A DNA stretch of 62,598 bases from Akkermansia muciniphila (GTDB lineage: Bacteria; Verrucomicrobiota; Verrucomicrobiia; Limisphaerales; SIAT01). Below the pieces are notes generated by a model that saw only the letters and a list, made by a program, of their open reading frames with translations, was not told where the DNA came from and ran no database searches. The stretch's first letter is position 1; each line of letters begins with the position of its first letter. The position numbers were made by a program, and so were the translations under genes. Below are positions 1 to 7,218 of this stretch, in pieces. Where the stretch lies: positions 1 to 62,598 of the forward strand of contig CAMASG010000004.1 of the NCBI GenBank assembly GCA_945860945.1. Direction: 5' to 3'.

Positions 1-2
1 GG

Positions 3-908
3 CCGGTGCTGATGCTTGGCGCGTGTCTGCCGGACGAAGTCGAGCGTGCCGTGCGCGACGACGTGATGCCGACGGTCTCGAGTTTGGCCGAGGCGAAAAT
101 GTTTTCTGCCGCCGCAATCCGACTGAAGCGCACCGTGAATGCGCATATCAAAGTGGACACGGGAATGGGTCGTCTCGGCGCGACGCCCGAGCAAGCGCGG
201 GAGTTAATCAAAGCGATCGGTCGGTTGCCAGGGTTGCGATTGGTTGGATTATACACGCATTACGCGGCGGTGGAGGACGACGCGGTGTTCTCTCGCGAGC
301 AACGGCAACGATTCAATCGTCTGCTAGCGCCACTGCTCAAAGCGGGACGTTCGATCGAGTATCTGCATGCGAACAACAGCGGCGCACTGCTGTTGGAGAA
401 GGCGACGATTTTCAACACCGTGCGGCCGGGGTTGGCGGTGTATGGCGTGGTGCCGCCGGGAAAGCGGCGGGTGGCCTCCGTGCTGAAGCGCCATTTGCGT
501 CCCGCGCTCGCGTGGAAATGTCGTGTGAGTTTGGTGAAGGAAGTGCCTGCAGGCACGCCGTTGAGTTACGGGCGGACGTTCATCGCGGCGCGGTCGATGC
601 GTGTGGTGACGCTCACGGCCGGTTACGGGGATGGTTATCTCCGTTCCGGAAGCGGTCGAGCGCAGGTGCTCATCGGCGGCAGGCTCTGTCCTGTTGTCGG
701 TCGCATCACGATGGATCAAATGCTGGTGGACGTCTCCGCGCTCAAGCGCGTGAGGGCGGGAGATGAAGCGGTTCTCATTGGTCGACAGGGGCGTAAAGCA
801 ATCACCGCGGCGCAGGTGGCGGAATGGGTGGGGACGATTCCGTGGGAGGTGCTCACGGCCATTACGTATCGCGTGCCGCGCGTGTATCTCGGCGGCCACG
901 CGGCGTAA
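3..908 (+). CDS. alr: Alanine racemase (5'-truncated by window edge)
   Basis: Motifs HIKVDTGMGRLG, HANNSG, VRPGLAVYG, GYGDGY, GRITMDQ, TIPWEVLT; frame is open to the window start and the N-terminal PLP-lysine motif is not in the window. Confidence 0.95.
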   Translation, partial: PVLMLGACLPDEVERAVRDDVMPTVSSLAEAKMFSAAAIRLKRTVNAHIKVDTGMGRLGATPEQARELIKAIGRLPGLRLVGLYTHYAAVEDDAVFSREQRQRFNRLLAPLLKAGRSIEYLHANNSGALLLEKATIFNTVRPGLAVYGVVPPGKRRVASVLKRHLRPALAWKCRVSLVKEVPAGTPLSYGRTFIAARSMRVVTLTAGYGDGYLRSGSGRAQVLIGGRLCPVVGRITMDQMLVDVSALKRVRAGDEAVLIGRQGRKAITAAQVAEWVGTIPWEVLTAITYRVPRVYLGGHAA

Positions 909-932
909 TTTAGATTTCCGCCGCGGCTGCGT

Positions 933-1595
933 TTACTTCGCAGAAGCCTTTTCCATCTTCAGCCGTTTGCGTTCGCGGAGGAATTCAAACACGCCAGGCA
1001 GGATGGAGATGATGATGATCATCAGAATGACGGTGGAGAATCGCTTCTTCACGAAGTCATGGCGGGCGAGGAAGTAGCCGAGCGGCACCAGCGTCACAGC
1101 CCAGATGATGCCGCCGAGGACATTGAAGGCCATGAAGCGGGGATAACTCATCTCTCCCACGCCAGCCACAAATGGCGCGAAGGTGCGTACGATGGGCACG
1201 AAGCGCGCGATGACGATGGTCTTCGCGCCGTAGCGTTCGTAGAACTTGTGAGTGCGGTCGAGGTATTCTTTTTTCACAACGCGCGGAAATTTCAAAGCGA
1301 GCTTGTGACCCGTGCTGCGGCCGATCCAGTAGTTCACCGTGTCACCGAGAATGGCGGCAACGGGAATGAGCACGAGCAACGCGGCGAGGTTCAATCCGTT
1401 CGGAATCGCGGCGAAGGTGCCGAGGGCGAAGAGCAGGGAATCGCCCGGCAGAAAAGGGGTCACCACCAAACCGGTTTCGCAGAAGATGACGAGGAAGACA
1501 ATCGCGTAGAACCACGGGCCGAAATCCTGGATGAGGCCGCCGAGATGGCGATCGAGATGGAGGACGATGTCGATGATTTGGAGGACGAGTTCCAT
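933..1595 (-). CDS. dedA: DedA family membrane protein
   Basis: C-terminal 220 aa of ORF 933..2489: MELVLQIIDIVLHLD...FCETGLVVTPFLPGDSLLF...GDTVNYWIG...ARFVPIVRTFAPFVAG; ATG at 1595. Confidence 0.92.
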   Translation of the reverse strand: MELVLQIIDIVLHLDRHLGGLIQDFGPWFYAIVFLVIFCETGLVVTPFLPGDSLLFALGTFAAIPNGLNLAALLVLIPVAAILGDTVNYWIGRSTGHKLALKFPRVVKKEYLDRTHKFYERYGAKTIVIARFVPIVRTFAPFVAGVGEMSYPRFMAFNVLGGIIWAVTLVPLGYFLARHDFVKKRFSTVILMIIIISILPGVFEFLRERKRLKMEKASAK

Positions 1596-1658
1596 CGCGC
1601 GAGACGGTGCGTGAGAAAGGCGTTGCGAGGCAAGGAAGATGTTGTCCACACTGCGCCG

Positions 1659-2690
1659 ATGAGAGCGGCTGTGCTGCATGGGAAAGAGGATGTGCGCGTC
1701 GAGCGCGTCCCCGTGCCGGCGCTGCGCGAGGGCGAGGTGCGTATCGCCATCGAGGCGGCTCTCACCTGTGGCACCGACCTGAAGGTCTTCAAGCGCGGTT
1801 ACCATGCGCGAATGATTGTGCCGCCGGCGGTCTTCGGTCACGAGTTGGCCGGTGTAATCAGCGAGGTGACTCCGCAAGCGCGCGATTGGCGCGTGGGCGA
1901 TCGCGTGGCGGTGGCAAACTCTGCGCCGTGCAGCGACTGCCGTTTCTGCCGCGGTGGGCAGGAGAATCTCTGCGATGATCTGCTTTTTCTGAACGGCGCG
2001 TATGCCGAATCCATCGCGGTGCCGTCGCGGTTGGTCGAAAAGAATTTGCTGCGTCTGAAACCCACGACGAATTTCCGCGCCGCGGCTTTGACCGAACCGC
2101 TCGGCTGCGTGGTGCAGGGTGTGGAGGATTGCAAGCTGCGCGCCGGTCAGCGCGTGCTCATCATCGGCGCGGGGCCGATTGGATTGATGTTCGTTGCATT
2201 GGCGAAGGAATCCGGTTGCGCGGTGAACGTGGTGGGTCGTGGCGAGAAGCGGCTGGCTACCGCGCGTAAGCTCGGCGCGAAACGGGTCATTGATGTAACC
2301 AATGGCGACGACGTGGTGAGCGCCGTGAAGACCGCAGTGTCGGAACCGTTCGATGTGGTGGTGGAGGCGGTCGGCAAGCCCGAGACGTGGGAAGCGGCTG
2401 TGAAGCTGGTCCGCAAAGGCGGCGTGGTGAATTTCTTCGGTGGCTGTCCGGCGGGCACGAGCATCACGCTCGACACGGGCCTGATCCACTATTCAAACTT
2501 GAGGCTGCTCGCGAGTTTTCATCACACCCCACGCACCATTCGCCGAGCACTGGAGTTGATTGAAGATGCCGTGATCCGTGCGGATGATTTCGTGGATGGC
2601 GAAGTGCTGCTGGCGGATCTGCCCGAATTATTCAAGGCGATGGCTAACGGGAGTCGCGCCGTAAAGACACTGGTGCGAGTGCGGATGTGA
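1659..2690 (+). CDS. Zinc-dependent alcohol/sugar-alcohol dehydrogenase (MDR family, Tdh/GutB-like)
   Basis: MRAAVLHG start at ATG 1659; CGTD, GHE, structural Zn CxxCxxC..C (CSDCRFCRGGQENLC), Rossmann GAGPIG. Confidence 0.9.
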   Translation: MRAAVLHGKEDVRVERVPVPALREGEVRIAIEAALTCGTDLKVFKRGYHARMIVPPAVFGHELAGVISEVTPQARDWRVGDRVAVANSAPCSDCRFCRGGQENLCDDLLFLNGAYAESIAVPSRLVEKNLLRLKPTTNFRAAALTEPLGCVVQGVEDCKLRAGQRVLIIGAGPIGLMFVALAKESGCAVNVVGRGEKRLATARKLGAKRVIDVTNGDDVVSAVKTAVSEPFDVVVEAVGKPETWEAAVKLVRKGGVVNFFGGCPAGTSITLDTGLIHYSNLRLLASFHHTPRTIRRALELIEDAVIRADDFVDGEVLLADLPELFKAMANGSRAVKTLVRVRM

Positions 2691-2724
2691 AGCTCGGAGG
2701 GAGCGTGTCAGCCGAAAAACAAAA

Positions 2725-3111
2725 CTACACGAGCGCGGAGAGGCGGCTATCGGACTGCTGTAGGATATTGGTCAACTGCTGGTAAGCGGTGCCGGCGGCG
2801 GATTGGAACTGACCGAATTCGGAGACGGTGCTCAGCGCATTGCTGCTGGCAGAGAGATCGGTCGAGAGACGGGAGGCAAAGGATTTGAGCGGATCGCTGT
2901 TTCCGAGGCTCGCGGCGGAAGCGGCGGCTTGCGCAGACATCTGCTGGAGCGCAGACATCGAGGGAGCAGAGCGTTGCTCGCTGATGGCTTGGGCTTGGGC
3001 GCGAGCATCAAGCTGCTTCGCGGAGGAAAGTTGCTGGGAGTTCTGGGAGCGCAAGCCACTGACGTGGCTGCTGTTCAAACGAACTAAATCTGAGTATCCA
3101 TCAACTCGCAT
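2725..3111 (-). CDS. Hypothetical 128-aa Ser/Gln/Ala-rich protein with flagellin-like termini
   Basis: ATG in the same TATG context as most genes here; AT-rich upstream region; LSSAKQL..AISEQ and AGTA/NILQQ words resemble flagellin N/C termini. Confidence 0.6.
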   Translation of the reverse strand: MRVDGYSDLVRLNSSHVSGLRSQNSQQLSSAKQLDARAQAQAISEQRSAPSMSALQQMSAQAAASAASLGNSDPLKSFASRLSTDLSASSNALSTVSEFGQFQSAAGTAYQQLTNILQQSDSRLSALV

Positions 3112-3291
3112 AGTACTTTGGTTGCTTGGCTTTCCTAGCTCTGATACTTCGGACGGCCTGCTGTCTACAGGAGGGCAGTGGATGATTCAAGGTAATTTTT
3201 ATTAATCATTCAAAAAACCTTTTCTGATTTAAATCGTGAAAGGACGAAACCGAGGTTTGTTGGTCGATGAAACGCGCCCGATAGTCTGGAA

Positions 3292-4290
3292 TCAGTGCGT
3301 CAGCAGGGAAAGGAGGTTCTCGCCGCTGGCGGTGAGAATCCATTTGCTTCCCTTCTTGAAAACGAGGCGTCGGCAGCCGGCGCGTTCGAACTCGGCTTGA
3401 TTCACGGAGAGAAGCTGCGATTTGCCCGTACCCTGAATCTCACTTGCTGCGCGGGGAATCAGCTCAAAAGGCACGCCGTTGTAGTTCAGCGCGATTTCGT
3501 AACCTGCGATTCCTTCCGTTTTGGCGCGGGGATTATCACGGACGAGAGCGGGGTGGCGCCGAAGCCACGGGAAATCCGTATCGCGGACAAAGACGCGGCA
3601 GAGCTCGGGTTGGCTGCGGACGTGTTCAAGCAGGCTGAACTTCGTGCCGAGACGTTGCTGCGCGAGGAGCAATTTACTGGGCGAGAGGCCGAGAAGGTTT
3701 TGGCCGTTCCAGTCACCGTGATCGTTGCGCTGGCCGGGGTGTTGAGCTTTGTACCATCCGGCGAAGCGGTCATTGACGAAGAGGTTGATCTCGAAATGGA
3801 GGTGCGCGCGCTCTTTGGATATCTGCTCGCGCGTGTTCGTGGTGCGTCCCATCACGCCGATGACCTCGCCGGATTGCACGGTGGCGCCAACTTTGAGACC
3901 GCTGGTAATCGAAGCGAGATGGGCGTAGAGCGTGTAAATCTCCAGCCCCTCAATCTGGTGGCGAAGGATGAGGTAGTTGCCGTAGTTCGAGAGCGACGGC
4001 TTGGCGTTGATGTAGGCGACGCTGCCGGCGGCGGCGGCGTGGACGGTATCGAGCGGTTCGGTGCGTTTGTCGCGCCGCAGGCAACGGATGTCGATGCCTT
4101 CGTGCATCTGCGCGCCACCGGTGCGGACGCAGCCGAAATCGCCGCTCGTCCACGGCTTGCCGACGGTGCCGACGAAGAATTTCTCCAACTGACTCACGTC
4201 GAGCAGGTGCCGGTTCGCGGTCGGGAACTGGAATGGTTGCGCGGCAGCGAGGAAGGGCAGGGCGGTGGCGAGCAGGAATGAGAGCTTCAT
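3292..4290 (-). CDS. M23 family metallopeptidase, secreted
   Basis: Signal peptide; HEGID (HxxxD), YAHL, HLHFEI (HxH) motifs; ATGA overlap with the upstream gene. Confidence 0.9.
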   Translation of the reverse strand: MKLSFLLATALPFLAAAQPFQFPTANRHLLDVSQLEKFFVGTVGKPWTSGDFGCVRTGGAQMHEGIDIRCLRRDKRTEPLDTVHAAAAGSVAYINAKPSLSNYGNYLILRHQIEGLEIYTLYAHLASITSGLKVGATVQSGEVIGVMGRTTNTREQISKERAHLHFEINLFVNDRFAGWYKAQHPGQRNDHGDWNGQNLLGLSPSKLLLAQQRLGTKFSLLEHVRSQPELCRVFVRDTDFPWLRRHPALVRDNPRAKTEGIAGYEIALNYNGVPFELIPRAASEIQGTGKSQLLSVNQAEFERAGCRRLVFKKGSKWILTASGENLLSLLTH

Positions 4291-4808
4291 TTTTTACGGA
4301 CGACGTCGAGGAGGTTGTTCAGGCCACTCACAATGCGCTCGGCTTCGGGTCGCGTGGCGTCCGGTGTGAAAATGATGATGCCGCTTTTTTCGGTGTTGAT
4401 GATCATCGGCGCAGCCAACCAGCGGGCTTCGGTGAAACGACTGCCGATGACGAGCCGCTTGTTGCGATGGGTGGTGGTGATGCTTTCGAACAGAGCGGTT
4501 CCAAAATCGTTGAACTTGACCCAGATGGCGAACCCGCCGTCACCGGTGTCCACCACTGCGGCGCGTTCAATATGGCTTTCGAAGATACACGGATCGAGGT
4601 CGATGGTGATGTACACGGGGCGCGTGCGACCGACGGCGGCGGTGCCGGTGCGACTCGAGTTCGATGCGTCGGACTTCGTTTCGAGGTGGAACTTGAACGT
4701 GCTGCCGCTCTTGTTGTTGCCTCGTGAAAGAGAATCACAACCGGTCGCAATCAAGAAGAGAACCGCGAGCAGCAGATTGATGTTGAACGGCGCGAAGCGA
4801 CCCCTCAT
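4287..4808 (-). CDS. Lipoprotein with SecDF P1-head-like domain
   Basis: Lipobox LIATGC; AIWVKFNDFGTALFESITTTHRNKRLVI...AAPMI resembles the SecD/SecF periplasmic head subdomain. Confidence 0.65.
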   Translation of the reverse strand: MRGRFAPFNINLLLAVLFLIATGCDSLSRGNNKSGSTFKFHLETKSDASNSSRTGTAAVGRTRPVYITIDLDPCIFESHIERAAVVDTGDGGFAIWVKFNDFGTALFESITTTHRNKRLVIGSRFTEARWLAAPMIINTEKSGIIIFTPDATRPEAERIVSGLNNLLDVVRKK

Positions 4809-4855
4809 AGTCCGCGGCCAGAAGAACGATTTGTTCCGACCTTGTAAAGAACCTT

Positions 4856-4957
4856 ATGGGCAAGCAATACAACAAAACCGAGAAACGTAAACGCCGTGTT
4901 AGCTATGTGAAGCGCAAGAAGGCCAGCATTGTGATCAAGAAGAAGAAAAAGGCCTGA
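4856..4957 (+). CDS. Small basic protein, 33 aa (MGKQYNKTEKRKRRVSYVKRKKASIVIKKKKKA)
   Basis: Translated by hand (below ORF-track cutoff); cttATG start context; directly followed by an intrinsic terminator; about half the residues are K/R. Confidence 0.75.
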   Translation: MGKQYNKTEKRKRRVSYVKRKKASIVIKKKKKA

Positions 4958-4973
4958 CGCCTCTCGCGTTTTC

Positions 4974-5000
4974 AAAGCCCGCCTCACGGCGGGCTTTTTT
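4974..5000 (+). terminator. Rho-independent terminator after the small basic ORF
   Basis: aaagcccgcc-tcac-ggcgggcttt stem-loop followed by T run. Confidence 0.9.
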
Positions 5001-5212
5001 GTTTTCAAGATCGATTGAGGAATCGTCGAGGTGCGTTGAGTTTTTTTGCGCGTGATGCGCGCTCAGTTATTCACCGCACCGTTTTCGAAGGCGTTTTCCG
5101 CAGCTTCAGTGATTCGTCAGAAGTGAATTTTAACCAATGGTGAAACCGTTTTTTTGAAGTTCTTAGAAAAGTTTAAGCGGTGTTCTTTGTGAGTAAGTGT
5201 GTGGACAAGATT

Positions 5213-5243
5213 TTGTGGGCGGATACAGAAAAACGACTATAAT
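5213..5243 (+). promoter_or_regulatory. Sigma70-type promoter for the large RNA
   Basis: Perfect TATAAT at 5238-5243; TTGTGG at 5213-5218 (19-bp spacer, suboptimal); AT-rich upstream sequence. Confidence 0.65.
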
Positions 5244-5249
5244 GATTAC

Positions 5250-5264
5250 GTTCTTTGAAAGAAC
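5250..5264 (+). promoter_or_regulatory. boxA-like antitermination motif within a 15-bp palindrome
   Basis: GTTCTTTGAAA matches the Firmicutes-type rrn boxA wording; GTTCTTT-G-AAAGAAC is a perfect 7-1-7 inverted repeat at the predicted TSS. Confidence 0.55.
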
Positions 5265-6082
5265 TGGAGCGACCGGCCGGAGTCAAAAGCCGAGGTTGGA
5301 AACTCCTAAGATAATCCCAGGTAACTGGGAAAAGGGCAGGTCAGGCTGATTGGCCTGCCCCCTCTAGGACGGTGTCGCGGACCGCAAGGTTCGAGGCGCA
5401 GGTCGGGAGGCAGAATTCACAGGTTCCGCTGGTGGCGTTCGCGCGCTGCCAGAACGCGAATCGGAACTGTGCGGCTAGGGACAATGAGAAGCTGTCCTCA
5501 GCCGAGTCAAGTAACCCAAGCTGGTTTCGGGCTTGGGCGAATCGCAGTCACCCTGAGGGTGAATGATTGCTACTGCGCATCAGCACGCGGCGGAGTGTTC
5601 CACCGTCTCCGGTCGGAGGCGGTTCGGCGAAAGACACCGAAAGGTGGACAAAGCCGGCACCCGCAGTGGGGAAGGCACGAGGGCTAGGCAAGCTCCGTGA
5701 AACTTTCCAGAACGTCGGCGATGCCCCGCAAGGGCACCGCTGGTTTGTGAGCCAAATGCAATCTGAGGGATAAGAGGCCAGACCCGTCGCACTGGGCCAA
5801 CGCCCCGCCAAAAGCGGGGGCCGTCCTGGTGCCAAGGGGTAGAGACGCGGATCGCAAGTCACAGGCGTGTCTCTACCGGGTTCGCGAGCCGGCGGCGCAA
5901 CCGCCAGCCCAAGCGAGCTGAGAGGCCCCACCCGAAATCCGGTCGCCGAAAGGTGCTGGACGGCCCTGCTATGAGGCCGATGACTCCGCTTGCCGTGGAG
6001 AATGGCGTCGGGAAGCTGGCGGCCTTTAAGGCGCCTAATGCCAGCAAGGGAAAGAGAGCGTGGCGCGCTCCCACACCCACTT

Positions 6083-6125
6083 TGTCCCCGTTCGGCCGCG
6101 AGGCTGGGCGGGGACATTCGTTTTG
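6083..6125 (+). terminator. Terminator-like hairpin closing the large RNA
   Basis: tgtccccgttcggcc-GCGA-ggctgggcggggaca (15-bp stem) followed by ttcgtttt. Confidence 0.7.
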
Positions 6126-6234
6126 CGGGGCAGCGGCCCATCTTCCGCGCGTGCGGCAGAAAAGGCTTGCCCAGTCCCGCTGTTCCGACAGAATCTCCGG
6201 GCTTAATTCGCAGCAACCTCAACCACCACACTTT

Positions 6235-7218
6235 ATGGGCCGCATCTACAATAACATCATCGAAACCGTCGGTCGCACTCCGCTCGTTCGACTGAACAAG
6301 GTCACCGAGGGGATTGACGCCACCGTCCTTCTCAAGTGCGAATTCTTCAACCCGCTCGGCAGCGTGAAGGACCGTATCGGTATGGCGATGATCGAGGACG
6401 CCGAGCGCAGTGGTATTCTCAAGAAGGACACCATCATCATCGAACCGACCAGCGGCAATACCGGCATCGCGCTCGCTTTCGTCGCCGCGGCGAAAGGATA
6501 CAAAATTATCCTCACGATGCCCGAGACGATGTCGCTCGAGCGCCGCACGCTTCTGGCGATGCTCGGCGCCAAGCTCGTTCTCACTCCTGGGCCCGAGGGA
6601 ATGAAGGGGGCCATTGCCAGAGCCATCGCGCTCGCGGCTGAGACTCCGAACTCGTGGATTCCGCAGCAGTTTGAGAATCCTGCCAACCCCGCCATCCACA
6701 TGAAGACCACGGCCGAGGAAATCTGGGACGATACCGACGGGAAGGTGGACATCTTCGTCGCGGCCGTCGGCACTGGCGGCACCATTACCGGCTGCACCGA
6801 GGCGCTCAAGCCGCGCAAGCCTTCCTTTCAAGCCATCGCCGTTGAACCGAAGGATTCGCCGGTCATTTCGCAGACGCTTGCCGGCGAAACGGTCAAGCCC
6901 GGCCCGCATAAAATCCAAGGCACCGGCGCCGGTTTCGTGCCGAAGAACCTTCACTTGAAAGACAGCGTCGGCAATCCTCAAATCGTCGAGTGCGTGCAGG
7001 TGAGTAACGATGACGCTTTCGCGATGGCTCGCCGCCTCGCCAAGGAAGAGGGTCTTCTCGTCGGCATTTCCACCGGCGCGAACGTCATCGCGGCGCTCGA
7101 GGTCGCCCGTCGTCCAGAGAACAAGGGCAAGACGATCGTGACCATCGCCTGTTCGACCGGCGAACGCTATCTTTCCACCGCGCTGGCTGCTGAGGCAAAA
7201 GCCGAGGTTGGCGGCTGA
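6235..7218 (+). CDS. cysK: Cysteine synthase A (O-acetylserine sulfhydrylase)
   Basis: tttATG start at 6235; [10 protein letters not shown] (PLP Lys), [39 protein letters not shown]. Confidence 0.96.

Follow-up and report, generated by a model that had tools for sequence, protein, structure and literature searches.

The window analyzed here is a 62,598-nucleotide (nt) stretch of DNA, contig CAMASG010000004.1 (positions 1-62,598, forward strand) of assembly GCA_945860945.1. It belongs to a 2.63-Mb lake-water metagenome-assembled genome, 94% complete, that is catalogued as Akkermansia muciniphila (GTDB lineage Verrucomicrobiota; Limisphaerales; SIAT01). Between a small open reading frame (ORF) and cysK, the plus strand carries a promoter element, a long series of helices and a terminator hairpin, and an original prediction made from the letters of the window had marked positions 5250-6125 as an ornate non-coding RNA unit. 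From 5250 to about 6078 lies the gene for MISL RNA, present in one copy; MISL is a large structured non-coding RNA that spans about 830 nt and is confined to Verrucomicrobiota. We consider the overall explanation of the locus given here very probable. The parts of the locus are the following.

5238-5243 (+): -10 hexamer TATAAT, with a weak -35; in relatives this column holds an extended -10, TGnTAnnnT
5250-6078 (+): mature abundant MISL RNA of about 829 nt, whose ends are accurate to within a few nt
5250-5264 (+): invariant 5' element GUUCUUUGAAAGAAC, at +1 to +15, outside the Rfam model
5265-5308 (+): hairpin P0, with closing helix 5266-5269/5303-5306, outside the Rfam model; all four pairs of this helix show changes on both sides, with 87.8% of cells paired
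5309-6071 (+): MISL RNA core as in RF03079; 527.6 bits, E = 2.9e-159, model positions 1-751 of 751
5433-5459 (+): hairpin 5433-5437/5444-5448, whose loop (5439-5443) would pair with 5455-5459 as a pseudoknot or alternative helix
6048-6078 (+): 3' closing helix, GGG 6048-6050 with CCC 6076-6078, around the last hairpin; 92.9% paired (helix 35)
6083-6123 (+): intrinsic terminator, a stem (6083-6116) and a T-rich tail, in the primary transcript only; conserved and covarying in homologues

Results

The interval matches the MISL family over its full length

A scan of the whole window against Rfam at gathering thresholds returned a single match, to MISL (RF03079), at 527.6 bits against a cut-off of 274.6 and over the entire model. 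When positions 5150-6200 were searched with cmscan at E <= 10, the only other matches were noise of 10-16 bits (TP53TG1_1, AsdA and Six3os1_3); no covariance-model match was found to GOLLD, ROOL, OLE, HEARO or raiA, nor to RNase P RNA, tmRNA or group I and II introns. RNase P RNA and tmRNA are encoded elsewhere in the genome, at C38:9124-9519 and C24:775-1125.

The original prediction had proposed a MISL- or GOLLD-like RNA or a new class, and had ranked the interval as the window's strongest candidate for an undescribed system. The MISL part of that proposal stands; the likeness to GOLLD and the new class fall away. By the prediction's own standard, a strong Rfam match makes this a known class, and the claim of novelty therefore fails. 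The RNA class has already been described, and any annotation with Rfam or Infernal labels the interval MISL.

Helices of MISL are maintained by compensatory changes

We aligned 47 homologues from the order of the source genome, from an Opitutaceae-like family and from more distant lineages. When the Rfam consensus is projected on the window, 155 of its 162 pairs are standard. Across the alignment, standard pairs fill 86.6% of pair cells; sliding the partners by 1-3 columns lowers this to 36-42%. Both sides have changed in 152 of 178 pairs, compared with 90-94 in the slid versions. The covariation score is 0.426 (0.08-0.11 in the slid controls), and none of 500 shuffles reached the observed values. 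The approximately 36 helices of MISL are maintained across the phylum by compensatory changes, and the predicted packing of the interval with helices goes far beyond chance. The assignment to the plus strand from G-U pairs is likewise sound: such pairs are conserved, one of them being U-G in 46 of 47 sequences.

Most stems of the original prediction recur in the alignment as conserved, covarying helices: 5315-5330, 5334-5360, the outer helix of 5418-5471, 5472-5504, 5515-5537, ccgtctcc/ggaggcgg, cacc/ggtg, 5669-5708, 5803-5819, 5838-5877, 5938-5960 and 6015-6045. Three others are mispaired and must be redrawn. The stem gcagtca/tgattgc (5544-5570) loses to CGCAG/CUGCG (5543-5547/5573-5577), which is 100% paired with four of five pairs covarying, and for the supposed junction closed by actgcg/cgcagt (5572-5667) no more than 55% of cells are paired. 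The inner stem gcgttc/gaacgc had been placed in the wrong register (62% paired). The actual arrangement is a hairpin at 5433-5448 (helix 6), 92.9% paired with five of five pairs covarying, together with a pairing of its loop UCGCG (5439-5443) with CGCGA (5455-5459) (helix 7), 93.6% paired with pair counts of CG:30/UA:14 and GC:34/AU:8. Because this pairing and its hairpin both covary, the two would form either an H-type pseudoknot or alternative states.

Conserved structure extends past both ends of the Rfam model. Hairpin P0, which follows the 5' element, is variable, and the 3' strand of the closing helix lies beyond the last model position (6071). In homologues this closing helix appears as GGAG/CUCC, GAGG/CCUC or CGGG/CCCG, variants that are compensatory.

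The predicted stem cggacc/ggttcg (5378-5393) is present in the window, inside a genus-specific insert, and does not qualify as a feature of the family. At 5381 in this hairpin, all RNA runs carry G where the window has A. RNA editing (A>G) was considered and rejected, since DNA runs of the same study also carry G, which makes the difference a strain variant. Two DNA runs of that study carry C at 5389, likewise a strain variant.

MISL is an abundant RNA with defined ends

The MISL sequence is present in at least 18 freshwater metatranscriptomes. Abundance was measured as summed contig word depth, with the following values in metatranscriptomes X25 and X26.

MISL (5237-6055): 3.3-9.2e5 in X25; 8,769 in X26
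cysK: 122-150 in X25; 19 in X26
Upstream of MISL: about 5 in X25
RNase P RNA of the same genome: 2e5-1.3e6 in X25; 7,762 in X26
tmRNA of the same genome: 4.5-8e5 in X25; 7,819 in X26

MISL accumulates about 2,500-7,500-fold above cysK, and DNA depth in sister samples is only 14-70. These values place it in the top class of stable RNAs, level with the RNase P RNA and tmRNA of the same genome. The transcript that the original prediction called for is found in metatranscriptomes, as a discrete, abundant RNA over the interval.

In five runs the first covered position of MISL falls within 5255-5264, and in X26 adapter sequence immediately precedes 5258; coverage ends at 6075-6079, and in X28 and X30 adapter immediately follows 6075. 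To calibrate these ends we used tmRNA, whose own ends are known: in X25 its coverage falls 9-10 nt short at the 5' end and 0-3 nt short at the 3' end. By this measure MISL begins at about 5248-5250, in keeping with G5250 as +1, and its 3' end falls at about 6076-6079, immediately behind the short helix that closes its 3' domain. Depth in X25 falls about 500-fold before the terminator, from 66,000 at 6055-6059 to 132 from 6080 on. The abundant species thus lacks the terminator hairpin, which appears to be removed, as in other stable RNAs. The predicted unit of about 875 nt (5250-6125) is right for the precursor and too long for the mature RNA.

One X25 contig, 6047-6711, spans the 3' end of MISL, the terminator and cysK at the depth of cysK (132 vs 122). 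Some cysK mRNA might come from rare transcripts that start at the very strong MISL promoter and read through.

Promoter, 5' element and terminator

The predicted TATAAT element is present at 5238-5243. A strict sigma-70 scan found no two-hexamer promoter there, because the -35 is weak. Seven nt after the -10 begins the element GUUCnUUGAnAGAAC (5250-5264), which is almost invariant at the 5' start of 47 of 47 homologues and occurs once in the genome. It shows no covariation (helix 1) and is therefore conserved as sequence.

At the DNA level this element is, in the window, a perfect 7+1+7 palindrome (GTTCTTT-G-AAAGAAC) at +1 to +15. It could serve as an operator for a dimeric regulator instead of, or besides, forming an RNA hairpin. 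Only this window also has half-sites related to the palindrome, GTTCTTAG at -91 and GTTCTTTG at -68. The LexA motif of Verrucomicrobia is TGTTC-N4-GAACA; a LexA operator at +1 to +15 was considered and dropped, as the spacing differs.

A scan also recovered the predicted hairpin at 6083-6116 as terminator-like: its stem has 15 pairs, of which 10 are G-C, its loop has 4 nt, and the tail TTCGTTTTGC follows. With this terminator, the promoter element and a discrete, very abundant transcript, the interval is an independent transcription unit, as had been predicted.

DnaA-box-like sites form an array upstream of MISL

Three sites that resemble DnaA boxes lie upstream of the -10.

5067-5075 (+): DnaA-box-like site TTATTCACC, matching TTATTCACA at 8 of 9 positions
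5188-5196 (-): DnaA-box-like site TTACTCACA, about -62 from +1; positional orthologue of GTGAATAAG (TTATTCAC) in relatives
5200-5208 (-): DnaA-box-like site TTGTCCACA, about -50 from +1

Sites within one mismatch of TTATNCACA were counted as boxes. Over the 47 loci, boxes number 13.1 per kb within the 200 nt that precede +1 and 0.16 per kb in the remainder of these loci, an enrichment of about 80-fold; at least one box is present in 46 loci and at least two in 41. Aligned promoters share a conserved GTG.ATA box at about -50, a position occupied by TTATCCACA, TTATGCACA, TTATACACA, TTGTCCACA or ATATCCACA in 17 of 23 loci from the order of the source genome. Across the order, boxes stand at fixed positions -51 and -62, 11 bp apart and in the same orientation. 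The source genome holds 619 such sites (0.236 per kb), and the region upstream of MISL is the only 150-bp segment of its 2.63 Mb with at least three.

At the level of sites, this is the arrangement of a DnaA-controlled promoter, with boxes in a conserved position relative to the start of transcription. The simplest reading would be that DnaA acts as a transcription factor on the MISL promoter. The genome's own dnaA has two tandem GTGAATAAG-like sites, 11 bp apart (CTGTGAATAAGTCCTGAATAAGTG), about 320 bp upstream (G000:C3:19300-19350), and the GTGAATAAG-motif sites there include a perfect TTATTCACA.

Copy number, distribution and neighboring genes

MISL is present once in this genome; 27 of 41 relatives in the order also carry it, with one copy each. 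Among 301 genomes sampled across the phylum it was found in 26, and a single family, which includes several complete genomes, accounts for most of these. When one genome per species was scanned for the pattern, nearly all records returned were from Verrucomicrobiota (Opitutaceae, Lacunisphaera, Nibricoccus, Limisphaerales and Pedosphaera). Contigs assigned to Dongiaceae, Stutzerimonas (an 858-nt scaffold), Saccharimonadales and Bifidobacteriaceae also carry the signature (loci L084, L093, L094, L127 and L128); most likely they are Verrucomicrobiota sequences that were mis-binned in, or contaminate, public assemblies. One genome, G325, carries two copies of 502 and 405 bits (contigs C5 and C33; loci L039 and L047), the sole such case among the 301, and its second copy is the only locus of the 47 without a DnaA-box-like site upstream.

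Neighboring genes were called with a GC3 filter against shadow ORFs. In the order of the source genome, an M23 peptidase and a 173-aa lipoprotein lie upstream of MISL and cysK, followed by rho, downstream, with cysK in the downstream position in 8 of 25 loci. In the Opitutaceae-like loci L030-L044, a divergent HrpB-like DEAH-box RNA helicase lies upstream (10 loci) and typA/bipA downstream (12 loci). Helicase and translational GTPase are both linked to RNA or the ribosome, a hint at function that is suggestive only. Such order-specific synteny speaks for vertical inheritance and against both a leader function and mobility.

A 33-aa ORF rich in lysine and arginine, MGKQYNKTEKRKRRVSYVKRKKASIVIKKKKKA, lies further upstream at 4856-4957 (+), with its own terminator at 4974-4997 and no Pfam match. 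Related DNA occupies the same position in three relatives (L017, L019 and L022), and a contig of X26 covers 4834-4954 at a depth of 9.6. This ORF may encode a real small basic protein.

Discussion

Proposed role of MISL

We infer that MISL acts in trans, as a housekeeping stable RNA and not as an mRNA leader. The -10 sets +1 at about G5250, the primary transcript ends at the terminator (6083-6123), and removal of the terminator hairpin leaves the stable species that ends at about 6076-6079. The most likely role of the mature RNA, at roughly even odds, is that of a ribonucleoprotein scaffold for protein partners in the manner of OLE RNA. Alternatively, it could be a ribozyme or could assemble with itself, as has been proposed for OLE-type RNAs.

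Upstream of the gene, DnaA bound to the box array (-50 and -62 here) may tune MISL transcription and so couple the supply of the RNA to replication or growth status. We put this forward tentatively, with the odds slightly against it. A bolder idea is that MISL and the DnaA array form one conserved module, in which DnaA would set synthesis of the RNA and the RNA would act, for example as a ribonucleoprotein scaffold or self-assembling particle, on the chromosome, the replication cycle or physiology coupled to growth rate. We consider such a module unlikely. If true, an orphan large RNA would gain its first functional handle, and MISL would be the first example of DnaA control over a large structured RNA.

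Several points weigh against these proposals. Contig word depth, from which the 2,500-7,500-fold excess over cysK is derived, is a crude measure: close strains are added together, and the contigs do not record the strand. The loss of the terminator hairpin from the abundant species could partly reflect under-representation of a very stable hairpin in the libraries. About one third of the sampled genomes of the order lack MISL, some of them 96-98% complete, so the RNA is not universally essential; these absences are qualified by the search of relatives, whose stricter filters lose weak matches. No protein gene is a universal neighbor across MISL loci, and hence no partner can be named. The literature searched for MISL function yields only its use as a chemical-mapping substrate. 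As for the array, each of the window's three boxes carries one mismatch and none fits the strict consensus TTWTNCACA; DnaA binding is deduced here from sequence only, and a factor other than DnaA could recognize the motif.

Alternative explanations

The alternative that survives best concerns the array and not the RNA. The TTATNCACA-like sites might have nothing to do with DnaA regulation of MISL. They could bind another factor, titrate or reactivate DnaA in the manner of datA or DARS, or belong to a replication origin that merely adjoins the gene. The imperfect boxes and the evidence, which comes from sequence, leave room for this. So does the divergence of the flanking genes from this spot, as at origins, and no classical oriC-type cluster of DnaA boxes was found elsewhere in the 94%-complete assembly. 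Against an origin stands the G-C skew, whose sign stays the same across the locus, with values of +0.174 and +0.129 in the bins of positions 1-6000, the 6 kb that include and precede MISL, and mostly positive values from there to the contig end. The contigs of this genome show skew of both signs. An origin at the box cluster was therefore rejected. The fixed phase of the boxes to the -10 (-51 and -62) across families is that expected of a promoter-proximal regulator site, and the presence of the same motif upstream of dnaA itself speaks against a reader other than DnaA. Taken together, we judge this alternative improbable, though it keeps far more weight than any that follows.

A different proposal would make the RNA a cis-acting leader, a riboswitch or attenuator of cysK that uses the terminator at 6083-6116 as its expression platform. 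It draws on the position of cysK, on the same strand 112 nt after the terminator tail, and on the X25 contig that runs from 6047 through the terminator into the gene, as if some read-through may feed cysK. Yet cysK stands downstream in no more than 8 of the 25 loci of the order, in Opitutaceae its place is taken by typA/bipA, and the RNA is thousands of times more abundant than the mRNA it would control. Its 3' end lies upstream of the terminator hairpin, with the sharp fall in depth before it, and an RNA of 830 nt with about 36 helices is far beyond known leaders. Rfam types the family as 'Gene; sRNA', and the locus agrees with a free-standing RNA gene: it has its own -10 and terminator, it yields a discrete transcript about 2,500-7,500-fold over its flanks, and its downstream gene varies. 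A leader function is very improbable.

We give equally little credence to the view that MISL is part of a mobile element or phage, akin to the phage-borne GOLLD and ROOL, to HEARO, the guide of an IS200/605 nuclease, or to a degenerate group II intron. It is as large and ornate as those RNAs, yet it is a single-copy gene in conserved, order-specific synteny, with two copies in only 1 of 301 genomes. It has no adjacent ORF for a transposase, nuclease or reverse transcriptase, its neighbors encoding an M23 peptidase, a lipoprotein, CysK and Rho, and it has no Rfam match to those families at E <= 10. Least probable of all is that the interval codes for protein, whether through the 477-aa minus-strand ORF at 5548-6981 or through small plus-strand ORFs: ORFs of 45-477 aa do overlap it, as chance predicts at 60-63% G+C, yet each of the six frames has 2-10 stops within 5250-6080, only 34 of 314 indel runs relative to homologues are multiples of three, substitutions are compensatory within helices, and the 477-aa ORF is the antisense shadow of cysK, so that the overlapping ORFs are shadow frames, as the original prediction had held.

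Significance

The importance of the locus is modest. MISL is among the few very large bacterial RNAs without a function, and no expression data for it were found in the literature searched; in the main text of the 2017 motif-discovery paper, MISL goes unmentioned. To this our analysis adds that MISL is among the most abundant non-ribosomal RNAs of the cell in nature, and that its mature form has defined ends (about 5250 and about 6078), with the conserved 5' extension in and the terminator out. It also adds three helices with compensatory support for the model, and a DnaA-box array that is a conserved part of the locus across the phylum. Together, these give a starting point for genetics in cultured Opitutaceae.

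Comparison with known systems

The RNA of this window is a member of RF03079, with a full-length match, the same covarying helices and the same phylum. Relative to the model, the transcript is about 59 nt longer at its 5' end, where it carries the invariant 5' element and hairpin P0, and about 7 nt longer at its 3' end, which adds the partner strand of the closing helix. The candidate pairing of 5439-5443 with 5455-5459 is not visible in the nested Rfam consensus.

DnaA-regulated promoters and clusters of DnaA boxes outside oriC are represented by the dnaA promoter, by datA and DARS of E. coli, and by the DnaA-box clusters of B. subtilis. The MISL locus shares with them a TTATNCACA-type array at a non-origin site and in fixed phase to a promoter. 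It differs in that the downstream gene is a large non-coding RNA and the DnaA sites are putative.

In abundance in two metatranscriptomes, MISL belongs to the class of RNase P RNA and tmRNA. Like them, it has its own transcription unit and loses 3' trailing sequence. It has no structural similarity to either, and replaces neither.

GOLLD and ROOL are often associated with phages or prophages, whereas MISL is chromosomal, syntenic and single-copy, and has no Rfam match to them. All three are large, ornate bacterial RNAs found by comparative genomics. GOLLD and ROOL form RNA-only multimeric assemblies, as described by cryo-electron microscopy (10.1101/2024.12.08.627333). By analogy, self-assembly of MISL is a possibility.

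The best functional analogy is to OLE, an RNA of Firmicutes of about 600 nt that is structured, chromosomal, single-copy and very abundant, works with protein partners and was long without a known function. OLE shows no match to MISL in sequence or structure, occurs in another phylum and has dedicated partner genes adjacent to it, in contrast to MISL with its varying neighbors. Like OLE, MISL is large, structured, abundant and single-copy.

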